Notes: a model not told the origin generated them from the sequence alone. 64,000 bases of DNA from Bacilli bacterium (GCA_017511805.1 JAFWJA010000021.1:149360-213359); one strand, 5' to 3'. Counted from the first letter of the stretch, positions 25,516 through 51,932 are shown. Numbers and translations: made by a program.

Positions 25516-25524
25516 CTTAGTAAA

Positions 25525-25720
25525 TTGAGTGAGAGAAGAGTAAAATAATTAAATTATTGTAGAGAGTCTAGGTTAGGTGAAACTAGATATAATTATTATT
25601 TGAAGAAACTATCACATATCAATAATCGTTAATTACGTTATAATTAAAAGAGCATAGTGTTTCTATGAAGTAAGGTGGTACCGCTAGAGATAGTCCTTAC
25701 ATCATAGGGACTTTTTTTAT
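25525..25720 (+). ncRNA. T-box leader, Glu specifier (GAA)
   Basis: AGAGA..GGTGAAA stem I apex, GAA at about 25605, AAGGTGGTACCGC T-box at 25672, terminator agtcct..gggacttttttt; upstream of gltX. Confidence 0.9.
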
Positions 25721-39711: not shown

Positions 39712-41844
39712 ATGAACGAAGATATAATAAAACAAATAGCAATTGAATTAAAAATTAAAGATGAACAAGTATCTAAAACTCTTTCTATGTTAGAAGAAGG
39801 AAATACTATTCCTTTTATCGCAAGATATAGAAAAGAAGTAACTGGTAATCTAGATGAAGATGCAATAAAAGCAATATCTGATGTATATGAATACCAGGTT
39901 AATCTATTAAAAAGAAAAGAAGATGTAATTAGATTAATTGATGAAAAAGGTCTTCTTACTGATGAATTAAAAGATCAAATAATGAAAGCAGAAAAACTAG
40001 TAGACGTTGAAGATATATATAGACCATATAAAGAAAAGAAAAAGACTAAAGCAACTGAAGCTATTAAGAATGGATTAGAGCCACTAGCAAAGATCATATT
40101 ATCTTTTCCAGATACTTTATATGTGGATAAGTTTATTAATGAAAATGTTAAAACAAAAGAAGATGCTATACAAGGAGCAATGTATATAATCGCTGAATAT
40201 ATTTCAGATAATGCTTATTATAGAAAATGGATTAGAAATTTTACTTATAAAACAGGTATAATTAAATCTAAAATAAAAAAGAATGCTGTTGATGAAAAGA
40301 AGACATACGAAATGTATTATGAATATGAAGAAGAAGTTAAATCTATTAAACCTCATAGAGTACTAGCTTTAAATAGAGGAGAAAATGAAGATGTATTATC
40401 TGTTTCAATAGAGGTAGATAAAAATAAGATATATTCGTTTTTAGAAGGTAAAATGATAAAAAAAGAAAATGAATGTGCAGAACTTGTTAGAGAATCTATA
40501 AAAGATAGTTATGCTAGATTAATAGAACCTTCAATTGAAAGAGAAATAAGAAGTGATTTAACTGAAACTGCAGGAGATGTAGCAATAGAAAACTTTGGTA
40601 AGAACTTAGAAAGTTTACTATTACAACCACCAATTAAAAATAAGAGAGTACTTGCTTTTGACCCAGGGTATACTAATGGATGTAAACTTGCTTGCCTAGA
40701 TGAGACTGGTAAATATTTATATTCATGTGTTATTAAACCATTCGCATCAAGTGAAAAGTCATTAATAGATTCTAAGAATACATTATTAAAATTAATTAAA
40801 GAATATAAAATAGATATAGTTTCTATAGGTAATGGAACAGCATCAAGAGAATCTGAAAAACTAGTATCAGATTTAATAAAAGAATATAACTTAGATACTA
40901 AATATATAATTGTTAATGAAGCAGGAGCATCTATTTATAGTACTGAAAAAGTAGCGCAAGAAGAATTTCCTGATCTTTCTCCAAATGAAAGAAGTGCTGT
41001 TTCAATAGGTAGAAGACTTCAAGATTCACTAGCAGAACTTGTTAAAATACCACCTGATGGAATAGGAGTAGGTCTATATCAACATGATGTTTCAAAAACT
41101 AAACTAAAAGATAGACTAGATTTCGTAGTAGAAAAAGCTGTTAATACAGTAGGAGTTAATATTAATACAGCATCTACTTCAATATTAAAATATATTTCTG
41201 GTTTAACTAAAAAATCTATTGAAAAATTAATTGAATATAGAAATAAAAATGGTTTATTTAAAAATAGAAAAGAAATAGAAAAATTATTAACTCCTAAAAC
41301 ATATGAACAAGCAATAGGTTTTATTAGAGTACCAAATAGTGATAATGCTCTAGATAAAACAGCAATCCACCCAGAAAGTTATGGTATTGCTAATAACTTA
41401 TTAAAACAAATATCTTGTTCTGAATTAGATTTAGGTACTGATAAACTTATTACTAAATTAGATAATATAGATTTAGAAAAAGAATCTAAAGAATTAGGTA
41501 CTGATATTTATACACTAGAAGATATAGTAAAATCACTTCAAAAACCTAATAGAGATCCAAGAGATGAATTAGATGCACCTATCTTAAAAAGTAATGTACT
41601 AGAAATAGATGACTTAGAAAAAGGGATGAAACTAGAAGGTACAGTTAGAAATGTAGTAGACTTTGGAGCATTTATAGACATAGGACTTCATAATGATGGT
41701 CTAGTACATATATCAGAAATATCAGATAGTTATATTAAACATCCATCAGATGTATTATCAGTAGGTGATGTAGTAACTGTTTATGTTAAAGACATATTTA
41801 AAGATAAAGAAAAAGTAGCTTTAACTATGAAAGAAGATAAATAA
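39712..41844 (+). CDS. tex: Tex/YhgF RNA-binding transcription accessory protein
   Basis: EGNTIPFIARYRKE, DPGYTNGCK, IGNGTASRE, NEAGASIYS, HPESY, C-terminal S1 (GTVRNVVDFGAFIDIG). Confidence 0.93.
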   Translation: MNEDIIKQIAIELKIKDEQVSKTLSMLEEGNTIPFIARYRKEVTGNLDEDAIKAISDVYEYQVNLLKRKEDVIRLIDEKGLLTDELKDQIMKAEKLVDVEDIYRPYKEKKKTKATEAIKNGLEPLAKIILSFPDTLYVDKFINENVKTKEDAIQGAMYIIAEYISDNAYYRKWIRNFTYKTGIIKSKIKKNAVDEKKTYEMYYEYEEEVKSIKPHRVLALNRGENEDVLSVSIEVDKNKIYSFLEGKMIKKENECAELVRESIKDSYARLIEPSIEREIRSDLTETAGDVAIENFGKNLESLLLQPPIKNKRVLAFDPGYTNGCKLACLDETGKYLYSCVIKPFASSEKSLIDSKNTLLKLIKEYKIDIVSIGNGTASRESEKLVSDLIKEYNLDTKYIIVNEAGASIYSTEKVAQEEFPDLSPNERSAVSIGRRLQDSLAELVKIPPDGIGVGLYQHDVSKTKLKDRLDFVVEKAVNTVGVNINTASTSILKYISGLTKKSIEKLIEYRNKNGLFKNRKEIEKLLTPKTYEQAIGFIRVPNSDNALDKTAIHPESYGIANNLLKQISCSELDLGTDKLITKLDNIDLEKESKELGTDIYTLEDIVKSLQKPNRDPRDELDAPILKSNVLEIDDLEKGMKLEGTVRNVVDFGAFIDIGLHNDGLVHISEISDSYIKHPSDVLSVGDVVTVYVKDIFKDKEKVALTMKEDK

Positions 41845-41922
41845 TTTTACTTTTTACTAAAATATGTTATTATGTGTTATACTTTAAATGGTATGAACCA
41901 TTTGGTTTGGAATTTTGGTAAT

Positions 41923-41950
41923 AAAAAACTGATTATTTAATCAGTTTTTT
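41923..41950. terminator. Bidirectional terminator (tex / hisS)
   Basis: aaaaaactgatta-tt-taatcagtttttt. Confidence 0.75.
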
Positions 41951-43210
41951 TATGTCTTCTATTTCTGTTTCACTATTATTAAACATATCTTTTATTTTGA
42001 AACATTTATTATTTATTTCATCTTGACCTAATACTATTACATATTGAATCTTTTCTTTATTTGCGTATTCCATACTTCTCTTTAGTTTTTTATTATTCAT
42101 TTCTATTTCTACTTTATATCCCATATTTCTTAAATCATTAGCTAGTTTTAAAGCTTCAATATTAGTATCAAGTGGAATAATAAATATATCTGTTTCAGAT
42201 TTATTATTAAATATATCTTTATCTTTTATTAATTCATATATTGATGATAAACCAAAACTAATACCTACTGCTGGATAACTATTACCATCATTAATATAAG
42301 TACCAACTATATTATCATATCTTCCACCAGCTCCTATTGAACTAGTTAGTTTCTTAGATTTATCAAATACTTCAAACACATTACCTGTATAATAGTTTTG
42401 ACCTCTAGCTAGGCTTATAGAAAATTCACAAATATCATTAATACCTATACCTTTTAAATAAGTATCTAGATCTTTTATTTCAGTTAAACCAGTTTTAATT
42501 TTGTTATTATTAGTATTATTAAAAGTATTTAGTAATTCATCTAAATTCATATTAAAGTATTTATTAATATTATCTATTTGTATATTATTTAGACTTAATT
42601 TTTTTAACATATTATCTAGTTCTTCAGTACCAAGTTTTTCTTTTTTATCTAGAATAGTAGTTACACTTGGAACTAATTCTTCATTAATACCTGATTCTAT
42701 TATTAAACCAGTCATTAAGTTTCTACTATTATATTTTATATAAATATCTAAATCTAATTTCTTAAATACATTAACATATATAGATAATAATTCAGCTTCT
42801 ATTAACTGACCTGGTATTCCTACAACATCTATATCACATTGAGTAAACTCTCTATCTCTTCCTTTTTTAATAGGTCCATCTCTAAATACTTTAGCTATTT
42901 CATATCTTTTAAATGGAAAAGAAATAGTATTTTTATTTAGCGCTATTAACTTAGCAAATGGTACAGTTAAATCATATCTTAATCCTAAATCTCTATCACC
43001 TTGATCTTTAAGTCTATATATTTCTTTTAATATATCATTATTCTCATCATATTTATCACTTAATATATCATAATAAGATAGAATAGGGGTCTCAATTGAT
43101 TTATATCCATATTCCTCAAAAGTTTCAATTAATATTTTGTTTATATAATTTCTAATTCTTTGTTCTTTAGGTAAGTAATCATAACTACCTTTAACATTTT
43201 GTATTTTCAT
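41933..43210 (-). CDS. hisS: Histidine--tRNA ligase
   Basis: VKGSYD, GLRYDLTVPFA, FRDGPIKKGRDREFTQCDID, LARGQNYYTG, GAGGRYD, C-terminal anticodon-binding domain. Confidence 0.95.
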   Translation of the reverse strand: MKIQNVKGSYDYLPKEQRIRNYINKILIETFEEYGYKSIETPILSYYDILSDKYDENNDILKEIYRLKDQGDRDLGLRYDLTVPFAKLIALNKNTISFPFKRYEIAKVFRDGPIKKGRDREFTQCDIDVVGIPGQLIEAELLSIYVNVFKKLDLDIYIKYNSRNLMTGLIIESGINEELVPSVTTILDKKEKLGTEELDNMLKKLSLNNIQIDNINKYFNMNLDELLNTFNNTNNNKIKTGLTEIKDLDTYLKGIGINDICEFSISLARGQNYYTGNVFEVFDKSKKLTSSIGAGGRYDNIVGTYINDGNSYPAVGISFGLSSIYELIKDKDIFNNKSETDIFIIPLDTNIEALKLANDLRNMGYKVEIEMNNKKLKRSMEYANKEKIQYVIVLGQDEINNKCFKIKDMFNNSETEIEDIKKLIK

Positions 43211-43739
43211 ATTTTTTCACTCCCTCTTTTATTGCTTTTTCTAGAGCTTCTTCTTCAGTACTTGCACTTATACACTTTAATCTTTTTCTTTCATCAAAAT
43301 AATTATTAGACATTTTAGAAGCCCAACCACCAAATTTATCAATAGTTATTATTGGTATATTTGCTTGATATGCAATTGCCATCTCTGTTAATGTTCCAGA
43401 ACCTCCTGAAATTGCTATTATTACATCACAAGATAAAACTAGATTAAATTCTCTTCCTCCGCCAATTTCAAGTCCTGAATTAATTAGTATAGTAGGTCTA
43501 AATTTACCATATATACTTTTATCTTTACCTCCAGCGATACCTACAGTAATACCACCATTTTTACTAGCAGCTTTAGCAGCTTCTGTAGATAATGATGAAT
43601 ATTCTTTTTCCGCTCCATAAACTAATATATTTCCTGATTTAGCGATAAGTTCTCCTAAATTTTTAGCAAATTTAAGAGTTTCATCGCTATATTTTAAATC
43701 AGCTGCTGATCCCATTATTCCTATTTGTATTTTTCTCAT
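43191..43739 (-). CDS. LOG/SLOG family protein (TIGR00725-like)
   Basis: QIGIMGS, LGELIA..G, GGITVGI, REFNLVLSCDVIIAISGGSGTLTEMAIAY. Confidence 0.85.
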   Translation of the reverse strand: MRKIQIGIMGSAADLKYSDETLKFAKNLGELIAKSGNILVYGAEKEYSSLSTEAAKAASKNGGITVGIAGGKDKSIYGKFRPTILINSGLEIGGGREFNLVLSCDVIIAISGGSGTLTEMAIAYQANIPIITIDKFGGWASKMSNNYFDERKRLKCISASTEEEALEKAIKEGVKKYENTKC

Positions 43740-44618
43740 ATTCTTTTTAACTCCTTTTTTAATGTTTTTACAATTTCTTCATTTTTATTTGTATTTATAA
43801 TATTTTCTGGTAATTCTTTTATTAATGTTTTTTTATTTCTTAATTTATCTATTTCATTCCAAAGATAAATGCTTCTTTTTATACATTCTTTAGAAAAATC
43901 TAATTCTTTATCTAAAGGAATAGATGCTCTTTCATTAGGATTACCATAAGGCATAAAATAAGGTGCCTTTAATAAACCATTATTTGTTTTAATCATTATT
44001 CCAGATCCAGCGATTCCGAAATAGAAATCTCTTTCACAAACTTGGTCTATTACATCATACATAATATAATTTGTTATAATTCCATATTTTAAATTATCCT
44101 TAAAATAGTCATATCCTTCATCTGAACATATAGAAGATATTACTCTTATTACCACTATATCTTTTTCTTTAAATTTGTTAATGATAGTTTTAAAAACAGT
44201 TCCAGAAAATATTACATCATCTGCAAGTATTATTTTTTTACTATTAATAGTTCTTGATAATCTATCAATTTGTGAATCTAAAGATTCACTTTTTCTTGAT
44301 ACAATTTCATTTGTACCATTTATTCTTGTACAATCTAGAAAATATATATTTTTTTCATCTGGTTTAATAAATATTTTATCTAGAGTAACAATGGGGATAT
44401 TCACCACCAATTAACTTGTTTACTTCAAGCATTTCTTCTTCTGTAACAATTGTTACATTATCAAATACTTGATTAATATTATTTTTAAAATCTTTTCTAA
44501 CATTTTCAATAATTTTACTGTTTGGTACTGCATCATATTTATAATCAAATGCATTTATACCATTTAATATTCTTTCTATGTCTTCACTTAAAACAAATCC
44601 TTTTTTAATTTCTTTCAT
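43736..44618 (-). pseudogene. Type I phosphoribosyltransferase-like gene split by a single extra base (pseudogene, programmed frameshift or sequencing error)
   Basis: ORF 44376-44618 has the AAGGAG RBS; removing one C from TAT-CCC-C-ATT (GGGG at 44393-44396 on +) fuses it to ORF 43736-44410 (EYPIVTLDK...) giving 293 aa; PRPP-binding loop IILADDVIFSGT. Confidence 0.65.
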
Positions 44619-44644
44619 AAATAATCTCCTTCTTTCTATTTTTT

Positions 44645-44682
44645 TTAAATAAAAAATGCTACTGCAGTGCTTGCAGTAGCAT
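44645..44682 (-). terminator. Attenuator terminator upstream of the PRTase-LOG-hisS operon
   Basis: Minus strand ATGCTACTGCA-AGCAC-TGCAGTAGCAT followed by a T tract. Confidence 0.85.
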
Positions 44683-44751
44683 AATAGAGACTATTTATCG
44701 TTTATTATACTAGATACAAGCACGACAAATAGCACTTGTACCTACGATCTT

Positions 44752-44820
44752 TTAATGTCGTATTAACAAGTGCAGACTATTATGATGCATATTTTGTCTA
44801 ATTATTAATTCAATTTTCAT
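44752..44820 (-). CDS. His-rich leader peptide (MKIELIIRQNMHHNSLHLLIRH)
   Basis: AGAAGGAG RBS, 22 codons with four His, lying between a consensus promoter and the attenuator terminator upstream of hisS. Confidence 0.8.
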   Translation of the reverse strand: MKIELIIRQNMHHNSLHLLIRH

Positions 44821-44850
44821 AATAATCTCTCCTTCTTGAAAATTTATTTA

Positions 44851-44879
44851 ATGATATCATATATGTTTTTTTATGTCAA
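44851..44879 (-). promoter_or_regulatory. sigmaA promoter of the His-leader operon
   Basis: TTGACA-N17-TATCAT with TG extended -10, overlapping the end of the ORF6N gene. Confidence 0.8.
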
Positions 44880-45756
44880 TTTTGTTGATTAATGAATTAA
44901 TATATTCTTTATCTTCAATCATATTAATACCAAAACAATATTTACCTACATCTTTGATAGATGAACCTAAATGATATAGTTCATTTTTATCGATAATAAT
45001 AAATCTATCATGAAAAGAATCTTTTTGAATAATAGTTATATTATTATATTGTTCTTTATATTTTTTAATTAAGGTGTCATCCATATTTTTTGACACTATA
45101 AAAACATCTACTTTTATTTTACTCACTAAATCTAATACTTTTTTATCTGCATAATTGTCTATTATAATTATTTCTTTTTTACTTTTATTAAAAATGTCTA
45201 GCAAAAGTGAGTAAGCATCATATATTTGATTTTTAAAAAATATTTTGTTTTTTTTATTACCATAGTTTTCAAATATTTCATTAAACTTATTGTCAAATTC
45301 TATTATCTTATTATCATGTTTAATGACAAGATTATTAATAAATTCTTGATTATATTCATTATTAGAAATGATATAATCTTTCATTTCTTTAAATAATAAT
45401 ATTAATGATTTACTTTGTTCAACAGCTTTTTTTCCTTTTAAAACAGTCATAAGCATATATATTCCTTGTTCTGTGAAGGCATAAGGGAAATATTTTATAT
45501 TGAAACCTCTACCATGTTTTTTGTTCAAGGTCAAATTTTTTGACCTTGAAAGTTCATTTACATCTTTTTCAGTTAATTGAAATCTAAATTCATTATCAAA
45601 TCTTTCTATGTTATTTTTAACCTGTTGATTAAATGCTTTTGTGGTATAACCATATATTTTTGCCAAATCAAAATCAAGCATTACTTTTCTTCCTCTTATT
45701 TCATATATTTTATCTTTTAAATCTTCTTTTTCTACTATAGCTAATTCTGTATTCAT
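44857..45756 (-). CDS. ORF6N-domain DNA-binding protein with C-terminal PLD-like segment
   Basis: KIYEIRGRKVMLDFDLAKIYG...NQQVKNNIERF...PYAFTEQGIYML; FHDRFIIID...YHLGSSIKD. Confidence 0.85.
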   Translation of the reverse strand: MNTELAIVEKEDLKDKIYEIRGRKVMLDFDLAKIYGYTTKAFNQQVKNNIERFDNEFRFQLTEKDVNELSRSKNLTLNKKHGRGFNIKYFPYAFTEQGIYMLMTVLKGKKAVEQSKSLILLFKEMKDYIISNNEYNQEFINNLVIKHDNKIIEFDNKFNEIFENYGNKKNKIFFKNQIYDAYSLLLDIFNKSKKEIIIIDNYADKKVLDLVSKIKVDVFIVSKNMDDTLIKKYKEQYNNITIIQKDSFHDRFIIIDKNELYHLGSSIKDVGKYCFGINMIEDKEYINSLINKIDIKKHI

Positions 45757-45851: not shown

Positions 45852-46346
45852 ATGGCTGAACTAAGAGATTTATATGATATAAATAGTAATAAAACTGATA
45901 AGACTTATTATAAGGGTGATCCTATACCTGAAGGATATTATCCAATGGTAGTAATGATTGCAATTCAAAATAGTGAAGGTAAGTTCTTGATGCAAAAGAG
46001 AGTTCCATCTAAAGGAGGAGACTGGGGTGTTACCGGAGGTCATCCTAAATCAGGAGAAAGTCCTGCTGAAGGTATTATTACTGAAGTAAAAGAAGAACTA
46101 GGTATAGATATATCTAATAATAAGATAATAGAATTTAATTCTGGTTGTGATGGAGTAGATTGTTATAAGATGTATTATACTAATATGGATTTAGATATAG
46201 AAAAATTAAATATCCAAAAAGAAGAATTAACTGAAGTTAGATGGTTTTCTATGAAAGAATTAGAGGATATGGTTGATAATAAAGAATTAAATGAAAATCA
46301 AGTAGCGTTCTTTAAGAAATGTGAAAAGTATATAAATGAAAGATAG
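45852..46346 (+). CDS. NUDIX hydrolase
   Basis: GGHPKSGESPAEGIITEVKEELG; QKEELTEVRW. Confidence 0.85.
   Translation: MAELRDLYDINSNKTDKTYYKGDPIPEGYYPMVVMIAIQNSEGKFLMQKRVPSKGGDWGVTGGHPKSGESPAEGIITEVKEELGIDISNNKIIEFNSGCDGVDCYKMYYTNMDLDIEKLNIQKEELTEVRWFSMKELEDMVDNKELNENQVAFFKKCEKYINER
46267..46325 (+). repeat. 59-bp direct repeat, copy 1 (3' end of NUDIX gene)
   Basis: Matches 47504-47562 with 4 mismatches. Confidence 0.85.
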
Positions 46347-46356
46347 AGGTGATATT

Positions 46357-46917
46357 ATGAATAAAGTAACTTTTATTACAGGTAATAAACATAAACTAGA
46401 AATAGCTAATTCAGTTCTAAATATGTATGATATAGAAGTTGAGAACATCGATTTAGAACCTGATGAAGTACAAGATACTGATATAGAAGTAATTTCAGCT
46501 AAAAGTGCTTTATATGCTTCTAAAGAAATAAATAAACCAGTTATTAAAACAGATGTTGGTTTTGAATTTGAAGCATTAAACGGTTTCCCAGGCGCTTTTG
46601 GTAAGTATGTTTTTAAATGGTTAGGTACAGAAGGAATATTAAAACTACTAGAAGATAAAACTAATAGAAAAGCTAAATCAATAGAAGTACTAGCATATGC
46701 AGAACCTAATGGTTTTACTAAAACATTTAGAATGGATACTGAATTAAATATAAGAACTGAAGCAAAAGGAACAGGTTCTGTTATGGATCAGTTAATGGAA
46801 ATAAAGGGGCAAAAATCTAATTACGGAAGTTTAACTTCTGAAGAAAAATTAGAATGGTGGAAAAATACAGATAATTATTTCCATGAATTTGCAAAATGGT
46901 ATAAGGAAAGGAAATAA
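46357..46917 (+). CDS. Ham1/ITPase-family non-canonical purine NTP pyrophosphatase
   Basis: FITGNKHK, EVQ, KTDVGFEFEALNGFPGAFGK; C-terminal SHR motif absent. Confidence 0.8.
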   Translation: MNKVTFITGNKHKLEIANSVLNMYDIEVENIDLEPDEVQDTDIEVISAKSALYASKEINKPVIKTDVGFEFEALNGFPGAFGKYVFKWLGTEGILKLLEDKTNRKAKSIEVLAYAEPNGFTKTFRMDTELNIRTEAKGTGSVMDQLMEIKGQKSNYGSLTSEEKLEWWKNTDNYFHEFAKWYKERK

Positions 46918-49790: not shown

Positions 49791-49809
49791 GGTGGTATCT
49801 TTAAATCCT

Positions 49810-50050
49810 TTGATGGGAAGAGTAAAAAGATGGATTTTATAGAGAGTCTAGGGTTGGTGAAACTAGATAAAGTAAGTCTTTTGAACATGGTCCCTTAGTA
49901 GGAGATTAATTGATATGTAGGTTAATTCAGGTGTGCCTGTTATAGCACTAAACCATAATGGTTATTAAGGTTAATATAGTAATATATTAATGAAAAAGAG
50001 TGGTAACACGTATATACGTCTCTTAGAAGTTTTCTTCTAAGAGTTTTTTA
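49810..50050 (+). ncRNA. T-box leader, Met specifier (ATG)
   Basis: AGAGA..GGTGAAA, GAAC-ATG-GTCCC at 49887, GAGTGGTAACACG at 49998, terminator ctcttagaag..cttctaagagtttttt. Confidence 0.92.
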
Positions 50051-51728: not shown

Positions 51729-51744
51729 TTAGTCATAAATCGTT

Positions 51745-51932
51745 GATGAGGACATGATTTATATATTAATTATGTAGAGAGTTAGTGTTTGGTGAAAACT
51801 AATTAATTGTATATAAATTCCTACCTTTAAGTGAAATGTAAACATTTTCGGTTTAAAAGCCGTTATCTAATTAAGTTAAATTAAGGATGGTACCGTCATA
51901 AGACTCCTTGTCTTGGGTATCATCTTTTTTTA
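51745..51932 (+). ncRNA. T-box leader, Pro specifier (CCT)
   Basis: AGAGA..TGGTGAAA, CCT at about 51820, AAGGATGGTACCGTC at about 51883, T tract at about 51925. Confidence 0.82.

Follow-up and report, generated by a model that had tools for sequence, protein, structure and literature searches.

In a 64,000-nucleotide stretch of DNA from a Bacilli bacterium (GCA_017511805.1, JAFWJA010000021.1:149360-213359; hereafter the window, with positions counted from its first letter), the minus strand between positions 44879 and 41923 holds a histidine leader, a phosphoribosyltransferase (PRTase)-like gene, a SLOG-family gene, and a gene for a second histidyl-tRNA synthetase (HisRS2). We found that these genes probably form a histidine-starvation operon of histidine-auxotrophic gut Bacilli with reduced genomes, in which tRNA-His charging is read at two tiers, by attenuation and by a +1 frameshift at a hungry codon. 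The notable new element is a conserved, putative frameshift at CCC_CAU in an operon whose proteins contain no histidine; the leader-peptide attenuator ahead of it is real and is confirmed as another case of an already published kind. In dozens of genomes, the sole histidine codon of a histidine-free operon lies at a slippery CCC_C behind a histidine leader. For decades, starved laboratory cultures have been known to shift frame at hungry sense codons; if the slip responds to His-tRNA, this would be a natural bacterial case of amino acid sensing by programmed +1 frameshifting.

A PRTase-like gene lies behind the leader, as the first-pass annotation of the window had it, but the gene is encoded in two frames, and a conserved frame break had been overlooked. 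It consists of two overlapping open reading frames (ORFs) in different frames, at 44618-44376 (80 aa) and 44410-43736 (224 aa). The zero-frame part (44376..44618, minus strand) comprises 74 homologous codons, a CCC proline codon (44396-44394), a CAU histidine codon (44393-44391), four more codons, and a UAA stop (44378-44376). The +1-frame part (43736..44392, minus strand) runs from IVTLDK to its stop, is colinear with intact homologs, and carries the motif ILADDVIFSG. When the CCCC at 44396-44393 is read as a single proline, the two parts give a 293-aa protein colinear with intact homologs of 294 to 299 aa, and in the homolog alignment one frame takes over from the other precisely at the proline codon (...G(S/E)YP|IVTLDK...). 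Gene calling has broken up this gene in most public genomes, and most of the top 120 database relatives are listed solely as a C-terminal protein of 210 to 234 aa.

To characterize the frame break, we compared 59 analysable loci. The N- and C-terminal parts lie in the 0 and +1 frames in 41 of them, and the gene is intact in the other 18. The junction is CCC_CAU in all 41 shifted loci, which represent 38 distinct 60-nt contexts; UAU precedes it in 32, AUU is the +1 codon in 34 (AUC in the other 7), and the zero frame ends five codons past the junction in 38. CCC is a rare codon in this genome (26% G+C), where it accounts for 63 of 9186 proline codons (0.7%), and elsewhere in the PRTase-family genes it is used for 19 of 309. 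At the junction proline, the six genomic loci of this clade that are intact (L033, L042, L044, L045, L049, and L052) have CCA or CCT. In 12 of the 41 shifted genes, the C frame lacks an ATG, GTG, or TTG ahead of the junction, and the PRTase junction is the sole CCCC in the genome with such an ORF layout. In a maximum-likelihood tree of 68 rows, the outgroups (Patescibacteria and Proteobacteria) are intact, whereas the Bacilli clade contains 41 shifted and 15 intact genes; there are seven changes between the shifted and intact states, at least four of them forced by well-supported branches, and the shifted state persists over a clade with deep branches. Our search of the literature on frameshifting with histidine starvation or with phosphoribosyltransferases returned no report of such a +1 shift.

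The proteins of the operon are free of histidine. None occurs in the fused PRTase (293 aa), the SLOG protein (182 aa), or HisRS2 (425 aa), 900 aa together; the mean histidine content of the genome is 1.18%, and 5 of its 307 ORFs of at least 400 aa are histidine-free. In sets of related, non-independent sequences, 38 of the 41 shifted PRTases have no histidine and 3 have one, and histidine is likewise absent from all 10 scored HisRS2 proteins encoded downstream of SLOG, all 4 encoded directly behind the leader, and all 3 HisG proteins. Distant PRTase homologs have 2 to 10 histidines, and canonical HisRS has 4. Because the operon proteins lack histidine, the junction CAU is the sole histidine codon that a ribosome meets after the leader, and the lack of histidine in the products fits their synthesis during histidine starvation.

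The reading that we favor for the junction is as follows. Ribosomes in the zero frame would reach UAU CCC CAU in the PRTase mRNA, where peptidyl-tRNA-Pro(UGG) on CCC, facing an empty CAU A site, could re-pair one base downstream on CCC. After such a slip, AUU (Ile) would be decoded in the +1 frame and the full 293-aa PRTase would be made, while prompt decoding of CAU would lead to the stop five codons later and an 80-aa product. HisRS2 presumably raises charging capacity. ARAGORN found a single tRNA-Pro(UGG) and a single tRNA-His(GUG) in the 91%-complete assembly; we had also considered a quadruplet-reading tRNA-Pro and set it aside, the one ordinary tRNA-Pro(UGG) being the only tRNA-Pro found in that assembly. 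We tentatively regard UAU-CCC_CAU as a natural hungry-codon switch whose slip rate may gauge the wait at the histidine codon, such that full-length PRTase would appear only in starvation, the switch and the attenuator would together form a two-tier sensor, and PRTase-SLOG would act as an undescribed starvation effector working on phosphoribosyl pyrophosphate (PRPP) or nucleotides. The effector part of this reading fits two observations described below, namely, that a lone HisG replaces the pair in sister species and that the pair lies beside hisS in Patescibacteria.

A Shine-Dalgarno (SD)-like sequence upstream of the junction probably aids the slip, as in prfB. In the window, the proposed cassette (44391..44408, minus strand) consists of GGUGGUGA (44408-44401), AUAU, CCC_C (44396-44393), and CAU (44393-44391) in the zero-frame A site. 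We called an element SD-like when its duplex with the 16S tail, for which a generic anti-SD motif was taken, had an energy no higher than the 5th percentile among 11,531 background windows. The window element forms a duplex of -9.2 kcal/mol, a value reached by 0.4% of background windows. An SD-like duplex precedes the junction in 29 of 41 shifted loci versus 3 of 18 intact loci, with a computed spacer of 1 to 5 nt. Many shifted loci read GGGAGG-UAU-CCC, a spacing equal to the 3 nt given for +1 stimulators in the accessible text of PMC5009743.

The arrangement resembles that of prfB, of which this genome carries a classical +1 cassette, GGAGG-TTA-CTT_TGA_C (G000:C12 near 13177, plus strand). 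In both, the ribosome first reads a short zero-frame ORF and must then move to +1 to enter the main frame (here proposed), the P-site codon can re-pair at +1, an internal SD-like sequence lies, at several of the PRTase loci, about 3 nt upstream (GGGAGG-UAU-CCC_CAU versus GGAGG-UUA-CUU_UGA in the genome's own prfB), and the slippery codon is not conserved in unshifted relatives. In contrast to prfB, the A-site codon here is a sense codon, for histidine, rather than UGA, and would be slow to decode only when His-tRNA is short, so the quantity sensed would be His-tRNA and not release factor. The slip site is CCC_C at codon 75 instead of CUU_U at codon 26, the product is not the decoding factor (a HisRS gene lies downstream in the operon in 15 loci), and the SD-like element is missing or otherwise spaced in part of the PRTase family. 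Shifts at CCC have precedents in the accessible portion of the review by Atkins et al. (2016; PMC5009743), which describes +1 shifts at CCC_UGA in the Listeria phages PSA, A118, and A500 and in Escherichia coli pheL, as well as the hungry-codon frameshifting of Gallant and the Ty1 site CUU_AGG_C; the same text calls the natural use of hungry-codon shifts unclear. With these cases the PRTase junction would share the slip of peptidyl-tRNA-Pro on a rare CCC and the promotion of the shift by a slow A-site codon. As far as that text goes, however, the phage and pheL sites have a stop codon in the A site, and the bacterial hungry-codon shifts are laboratory observations under starvation.

A histidine-responsive slip has to be weighed against a constitutive +1 shift at CCC_C, which would hold the short and long products at a constant ratio or amount to the correction of a tolerated indel, the histidine codon being a by-product of the isoleucine that follows. 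CAU arises automatically from C plus AUY, it is the common histidine codon (89.7%) and not a rare one, and CCC_C is slip-prone by itself, as the Listeria phage and pheL cases in the accessible text of PMC5009743 illustrate. Yet the residue after the junction proline is isoleucine in 41 of 41 shifted genes, whereas it is valine in 6 of the 15 intact genes of the clade; the sole histidine codon of the operon sits exactly at the slip site, and the operon stands behind a histidine-sensing leader. On balance, we consider a constitutive shift unlikely.

Fission of the PRTase gene, behind a real attenuator, would dispense with the slip altogether: an 80-aa and a 218-aa protein would be made, the second started at AUU or AUC from the SD-like sequence acting as a ribosome-binding site (RBS). 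Consistent with this, the SD-like sequence lies about 7 to 9 nt before AUU/AUC in 29 of 41 loci, the codon is always AUU or AUC and never AUA, even though AUA makes up 500 of 1032 isoleucine codons elsewhere in these genes, and gene callers give the C part as a protein of its own, 210 to 234 aa long, in most of the best 120 matches. Fission leaves unexplained, however, why CCCC is invariant (41 of 41) when CCC accounts for so few proline codons (0.7%) and the intact relatives drift to CCA or CCT, and why similarity to homologs passes from one frame to the other right at the proline codon. Four loci (L062, L063, L065, and L068) lack an SD-like element but keep CCC_CAU, and in three of them (L062, L065, and L068) the C frame has no canonical start either. 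Switches between the shifted and intact states, of which there are at least four, are easy by gain or loss of one C and under fission give no reason to keep CCCC. We therefore regard fission as quite improbable.

Several points weigh against a histidine-dependent slip all the same. In 12 of the 41 shifted loci there is no clear SD-like element, in the subgroup to which the window belongs the SD-like core lies further from CCC than in prfB, and an SD-like element about 7 nt ahead of AUU/AUC resembles an initiation site. Since an isoleucine codon (AUY) in the +1 frame forces CAU, the invariance of CAU is no independent proof of selection for a histidine codon. The loci are related, so the counts overstate independence, and the tree comes from a quick search, with a careful search unfinished. 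The products of trmD and efp restrain CCC-C slips, and both genes are present in this genome.

The leader that precedes the PRTase gene has all the parts that the first-pass annotation had listed, namely, a promoter, an RBS, a 22-aa ORF, competing helices, and a terminator, each on the minus strand where it had been placed. The promoter (44851..44879) is the best-scoring site and consists of TTGACA (44879-44874), a 17-nt spacer, and a TG-extended TATCAT (TG, 44859-44858; -10 hexamer, 44856-44851). It matches 11 of 12 consensus positions and ranks first among 23 promoter-like sites in 41800-45000; because shuffled sequences average 28.8 such sites, the count is not significant, and the call rests on position and conservation. 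TTGAC(A/T)-N17 with -10-like hexamers lines up, as judged by eye, in five of seven aligned leaders. The RBS AGAAGGAG (44829..44836) lies 8 nt ahead of the ATG, and its region, a GGAG-like sequence followed by (G/A)ATTATTATG, is kept across leader alignments. The leader peptide ORF (44752..44820, MKIELIIRQNMHHNSLHLLIRH including the stop) has histidine codons at positions 12, 13, 17, and 22 (H12-H13, 44787-44782; His17, 44772-44770; His22, 44757-44755), and its frame and histidine run are kept in relatives. Codon 21 (44761-44759) is the arginine codon CGA, which makes up 0.9% of arginine codons in the genome; it is kept as CGA or CGG and sits in a small inner hairpin between segments 1 and 2 of the leader RNA.

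Behind the histidine run, the leader forms a five-segment chain of mutually exclusive helices (1:2, 2:3, 3:4, and 4:5). Segment 1 (GCACUUGU, 44766..44773) pairs with segment 2, with eight pairs invariant in seven of seven sequences. Segment 2 (UAGGUACAAGUGC, 44732..44744) pairs either with segment 1, through its core at 44739-44732, or with segment 3, and segment 3 (GUGCUUGUAUCUA, 44711..44723) pairs either with segment 2, as anti-antiterminator, or with segment 4, as antiterminator; segment 4 (UGCAAGCAC, 44667..44675) lies within the terminator. Helix 1:2 thus joins GCACTTGT (44773-44766) to ACAAGTGC (44739-44732), helix 2:3 joins TAGGTACAAGTGC (44744-44732) to GTGCTTGTATCTA (44723-44711), and helix 3:4 joins GTGCTTGTA (44723-44715) to TGCAAGCAC (44675-44667). 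The intrinsic terminator (44651..44682) reads GCTACTGCA-AGCAC-TGCAGTAGC plus T6 (44680-44651), with 11 pairs, 5 of them G-C; its stem (44680-44672 with 44666-44658) encloses a loop at 44671-44667 and is followed by the T-run at 44656-44651. It is one of two terminator-like sites found in the region, where 0.2 were expected. Folding of the 211-nt leader yields -58.8 kcal/mol (z = -7.1), a value equaled by 0 of 200 shuffles.

Relatives within the genus and the family carry the leader DNA as well. Seven aligned leaders keep the RBS and frame despite 3-nt indels while the N-terminus of the peptide varies freely; the kept part reads H(x)H-N-(S/N)-(L/V)-HLLIRH-stop, and the histidine run is present in seven of seven. 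A covariance model built for the leader (R1) and used for searching related loci and genomes placed a leader immediately ahead of the PRTase gene in 45 of the 69 related loci (38 at E < 2e-12 and 7 more at E 1e-4 to 0.15). All 45 leader ORFs keep the histidine run (39 HHH, 6 HH) in the face of indels and a divergent N-terminus, which bears out the conservation of histidine codons on which the attenuator had been predicted to depend. Distant leaders whose remaining peptide differs still carry HHH (...LHHHRRSL and ...ELHHHCRSTCIA, including HHHCRSTCIA), and the readable leader ORFs of sister genomes also keep an in-frame HH or HHH run. The competing helices are kept as well, with 97 to 100% of cells paired in 1:2, 2:3, and 3:4. 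Across the aligned leaders, helix 2:3 has 13 pairs with 97.8% of cells paired, and helix 3:4 has 9 pairs with 96.8% paired, 5 of which vary on one side with pairing retained; every change in segment 4 preserves pairing with the invariant segment 3. Between genera, the terminator stems of two genomes (G023 and G020) differ on both arms and, by eye, still pair.

These features suggest how the first tier would work. With histidine replete, the ribosome would reach the leader UAA and cover segment 1, so that 2:3 pairs, segment 4 is free, and the 4:5 terminator forms. With histidine scarce, a stall at HH(H) would keep 1:2 closed, 3:4 would disrupt the terminator, and polymerase would read on. To assess this scheme, we imposed ribosome-footprint masks on the last histidine codon of the run or on the stop codon in an equilibrium model of 40 leaders (six further leaders were left out) and computed the probability that the 3' arm of the terminator is paired. 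This probability averages 0.43 with the ribosome stalled at the histidine run and 0.93 with it at the stop codon; in 24 of 40 leaders, stalling lowers it by more than 0.2. Folding under footprint constraints, as the first-pass annotation had suggested, thus gave the expected contrast in the mean and clearly in 24 leaders, but 14 were flat and the contrast in the window leader was small. The layout, its conservation, and the thermodynamic trend agree, and the leader would accordingly be expected to respond to histidine.

The run that most likely does the sensing is H12-H13. It lies upstream of segment 1 (the HH(H) run is about 11 to 17 nt upstream, with its end at about 11 nt), whereas His17 is inside segment 1. 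This qualifies the first-pass annotation, which had counted four histidine codons and placed the first helix at His17. Stalling at His17 or His22 would favor termination, and for this reason we ascribe their conservation to RNA pairing, through which both codons probably persist. The proposed ribosome-stalling layout as a whole is supported by the conserved histidine run, the kept helices, and the histidine genes found behind the same leader.

Several observations count against attenuation as drawn here. The longest histidine run in the window leader is only two codons. The terminator probability is at least 0.95 in all three states in 14 of 40 leaders, and in the window leader it is 0.29 when stalled and 0.51 at the stop. 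Two-sided covariation was found in none of the helices 1:2, 2:3, and 3:4, whose segments are nearly invariant, which makes shuffle controls on covariation counts uninformative. Lastly, an extra hairpin of the window leader and of one relative, described next, can sequester part of segment 3.

This extra hairpin, UAUUUGUCGU ... ACGAUAAAUA (44690-44732, minus strand), appears in the minimum-energy fold and occupies the beginning of segment 3. Of the seven leaders in the alignment, only those of G000, the genome of the window, and G001 have its 3' arm.

Firmicutes histidine-leader attenuators have been published before, one of them ahead of a hisS paralog (PMC2965389 and PMC9413887, in their accessible text). 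To the extent that these accounts describe them, they resemble the present leader in having a short ORF with consecutive histidine codons (three to five in theirs) followed by terminator and antiterminator hairpins in low-GC Gram-positive bacteria, and one of them likewise controls a second hisS. The present leader differs in belonging to uncultured, histidine-auxotrophic Bacilli without the his pathway and in its cargo, which is PRTase-SLOG(-HisRS2), a lone hisG, or racemase- and peptidase-like genes. The readable supplements of PMC9413887, which exclude its attenuator alignments, contained no match to the leader peptide or the core motif. As in the enterobacterial hisL leader (RF00514), a stall at tandem histidine codons would choose among alternative hairpins that end in an intrinsic terminator. 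Unlike hisL, the present leader shows no similarity to it in sequence or model, has two or three consecutive histidine codons instead of seven, and has five segments with the stall site upstream of segment 1; because of that position, an untranslated leader is predicted to read through. With T-box leaders (RF00230) it shares the control of a synthetase by sensing of tRNA charging through a choice between terminator and antiterminator, but charging would here be sensed via translation of an ORF and not via tRNA binding.

Could the ORF instead be incidental, and the leader a structured RNA that responds to a signal other than a stalled ribosome, whether as a divergent T-box, as a riboswitch, or by binding a protein? 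The nucleotides of segments 1 to 3 are nearly invariant, beyond what the peptide needs, and Firmicutes hisS is usually under T-box control according to the accessible text of PMC2965389. We nonetheless hold this to be very improbable: the leader matches no Rfam family at E up to 10, and the RBS, frame, and histidine run persist in 45 of 45 loci although indels of 3 nt occur and the N-termini are unrelated. In the scan of 44500-45000 at E up to 10, only chance-level matches such as osmY and frnS were returned; His_leader RF00514 had no match to the leader either at that E value or at the gathering threshold, and the T-box model RF00230 had none in the leader, its only matches in the window being at 25520-25701, 49801-50026, and 51734-51911. 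The remaining explanation, that the PRTase frame break arose from faulty sequencing or assembly or marks a decaying pseudogene, has in its favor only that the break lies in a short homopolymer (CCCC) and is rejected as next to impossible, since the same break occurs in 41 loci of many assemblies, metagenome contigs from four runs of four independent studies cover the junction without an indel, both halves remain open and conserved at 40 to 70% identity, and the C part is kept histidine-free.

We next consider the genes that accompany the leader in other genomes, which define a histidine-starvation regulon of uncultured gut Bacilli that comprises HisRS2, a lone HisG, racemase- and peptidase-like genes, and PRTase-SLOG. 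The leader is present in 9 of the 101 genomes of a family scan, and a class scan with R1 over 100 other sampled genomes gave no match outside G000. It precedes hisS of the same subtype in four genomes (G067, G077, G049, and G089), a lone short HisG (PF01634) in three (G001, G012, and G011), histidine-racemase-like genes in two (G003 and G109; best NCBIfam match HisR/CntK, below cut-offs), an M20 peptidase in G020, and an intact PRTase with SLOG in G109. HisD was not found in five genomes of the group (G000, G001, G011, G012, and G023); of these five, HisG occurs only in G001, G011, and G012 and PRTase-SLOG only in G000 and G023. They look like histidine auxotrophs whose histidine-starvation regulon is small and variable.

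In G001, G012, and G011 (L006, L007, and L009), the lone hisG behind the leader is histidine-free, and its ATP-PRTase is kept without a histidine pathway. The idea that HisRS2 serves as a HisZ-like partner of the lone HisG found no support, as G001, G011, and G012 hold only canonical hisS.

Many short contigs from four gut metagenome runs match the leader core (44712-44787) alone and then continue into unrelated sequence, and read depth over the core is several-fold that over the PRTase gene. This suggests that the leader is joined to varied cargo in many gut organisms.

The two genes downstream of the PRTase overlap as the first-pass annotation had stated, PRTase and SLOG by 4 nt (43736-43739) and SLOG and hisS by 20 nt (43191-43210). 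The SLOG cluster-4/TIGR00725-like protein (43191..43739, minus strand, 182 aa) matches PF18306 at 100.8 bits, above the cut-off of 26.3, and TIGR00725 at 84.7 bits, below the cut-off of 106.9; its nearest solved structures are MoCo carrier protein and TM1055-like. HisRS2 (41933..43210, minus strand, 425 aa) is PRK12420-like, of the archaeal/eukaryote-like type. It matches TIGR00442 at 351.1 bits (cut-off 286.75), contains an HGTP_anticodon domain, scores 502.6 bits against NF009085 (the PRK12420 subtype), just under the cut-off of 540, and is nearer to eukaryotic and archaeal-type HisRS structures. The canonical hisS of G000 lies elsewhere, at C6 (TIGR00442, 483 bits), and has no recognisable leader. 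A weak A/U-rich hairpin, CUGAUU-AAAU-AAUCAG plus T6, was seen by eye overlapping the hisS stop (41923..41944, minus strand) and is a possible operon end; the terminator search passed over it because it has too few G-C pairs.

The proposed PRTase-LOG-hisS order held for the first two genes, which form a constant pair, but less so for hisS. In a survey of 71 loci, SLOG directly follows PRTase in 53, lies elsewhere in the locus in 11, is absent from 6, and falls at a contig end in 1, while hisS directly follows SLOG in 15, lies elsewhere in the locus in 9, is absent from 39, and could not be placed in 8. Loci with hisS near PRTase-SLOG include Saccharibacteria and other Patescibacteria, so the widespread PRTase-SLOG(-HisRS) module flagged here extends to that group. 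Gene orders include leader-hisS-PRTase-SLOG (L073), PRTase-hisS-SLOG (L080, Saccharibacteria), and PRTase-SLOG-hisS (L091), and this variety points to a functional tie of HisRS and PRTase-SLOG across phyla.

The Pfam matches of the PRTase are weak and all under cut-offs: PF00156 scores 13 bits (cut-off 26.3; PF00156 is precomputed for many homologs), and PRTase-CE (PF24390, retron type III-associated) scores 23.7 bits with the C part and 21.2 with the fused protein, below the cut-off of 27. A PRPP-loop-like motif, ILADDV(V/I)FSG, is invariant among the homologs. The best credible solved matches are HPRT and OPRT, weak at E 0.02 to 0.4; designer PPR proteins, the top structure-profile matches, were taken as spurious low-complexity hits. 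In a protein atlas, the intact homolog P0006 matched uncharacterised PRTase clusters only. With low confidence, we suggest that PRTase-SLOG carries out a PRPP/nucleotide-consuming or nucleotide-remodelling step, because a lone hisG, encoding a PRPP-using transferase, replaces the pair behind the leader in sister species. A search of the literature on PRTase-CE, SLOG cluster 4, and TIGR00725 yielded a single retron survey and no account of a PRTase-SLOG-hisS operon. A defence-system reading was rejected, the operon proteins having no meaningful PADLOC match (PRTase_III-A matches the PRTase at E 1.5e-4 only).

Other synthetase genes of the window had been said to use T-boxes, and T-box-like leaders do lie before metG, gltX, and proS. 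Only the one before metG (99.4 bits) passes the Rfam gathering score of 93. The leader at 25520-25701 (plus strand), before a cyaB-like gene and gltX, scores 83.5 bits (E 1e-16), and that at 51734-51911 (plus strand), before proS, scores 56.7 bits (E 1e-9); because both fall below 93, a default Rfam scan misses them.

Upstream of the leader promoter, the neighboring gene (44857-45756, minus strand) encodes an ORF6N-domain protein of 299 aa whose stop overlaps the promoter spacer. It matches the PADLOC candidate defence family PDC-S05 (E 3e-94) and is not kept beside the operon elsewhere. Just past this PDC-S05-like gene, on the opposite strand (46336-46917, plus), lies a gene for an RdgB/HAM1-type non-canonical purine NTP pyrophosphatase.

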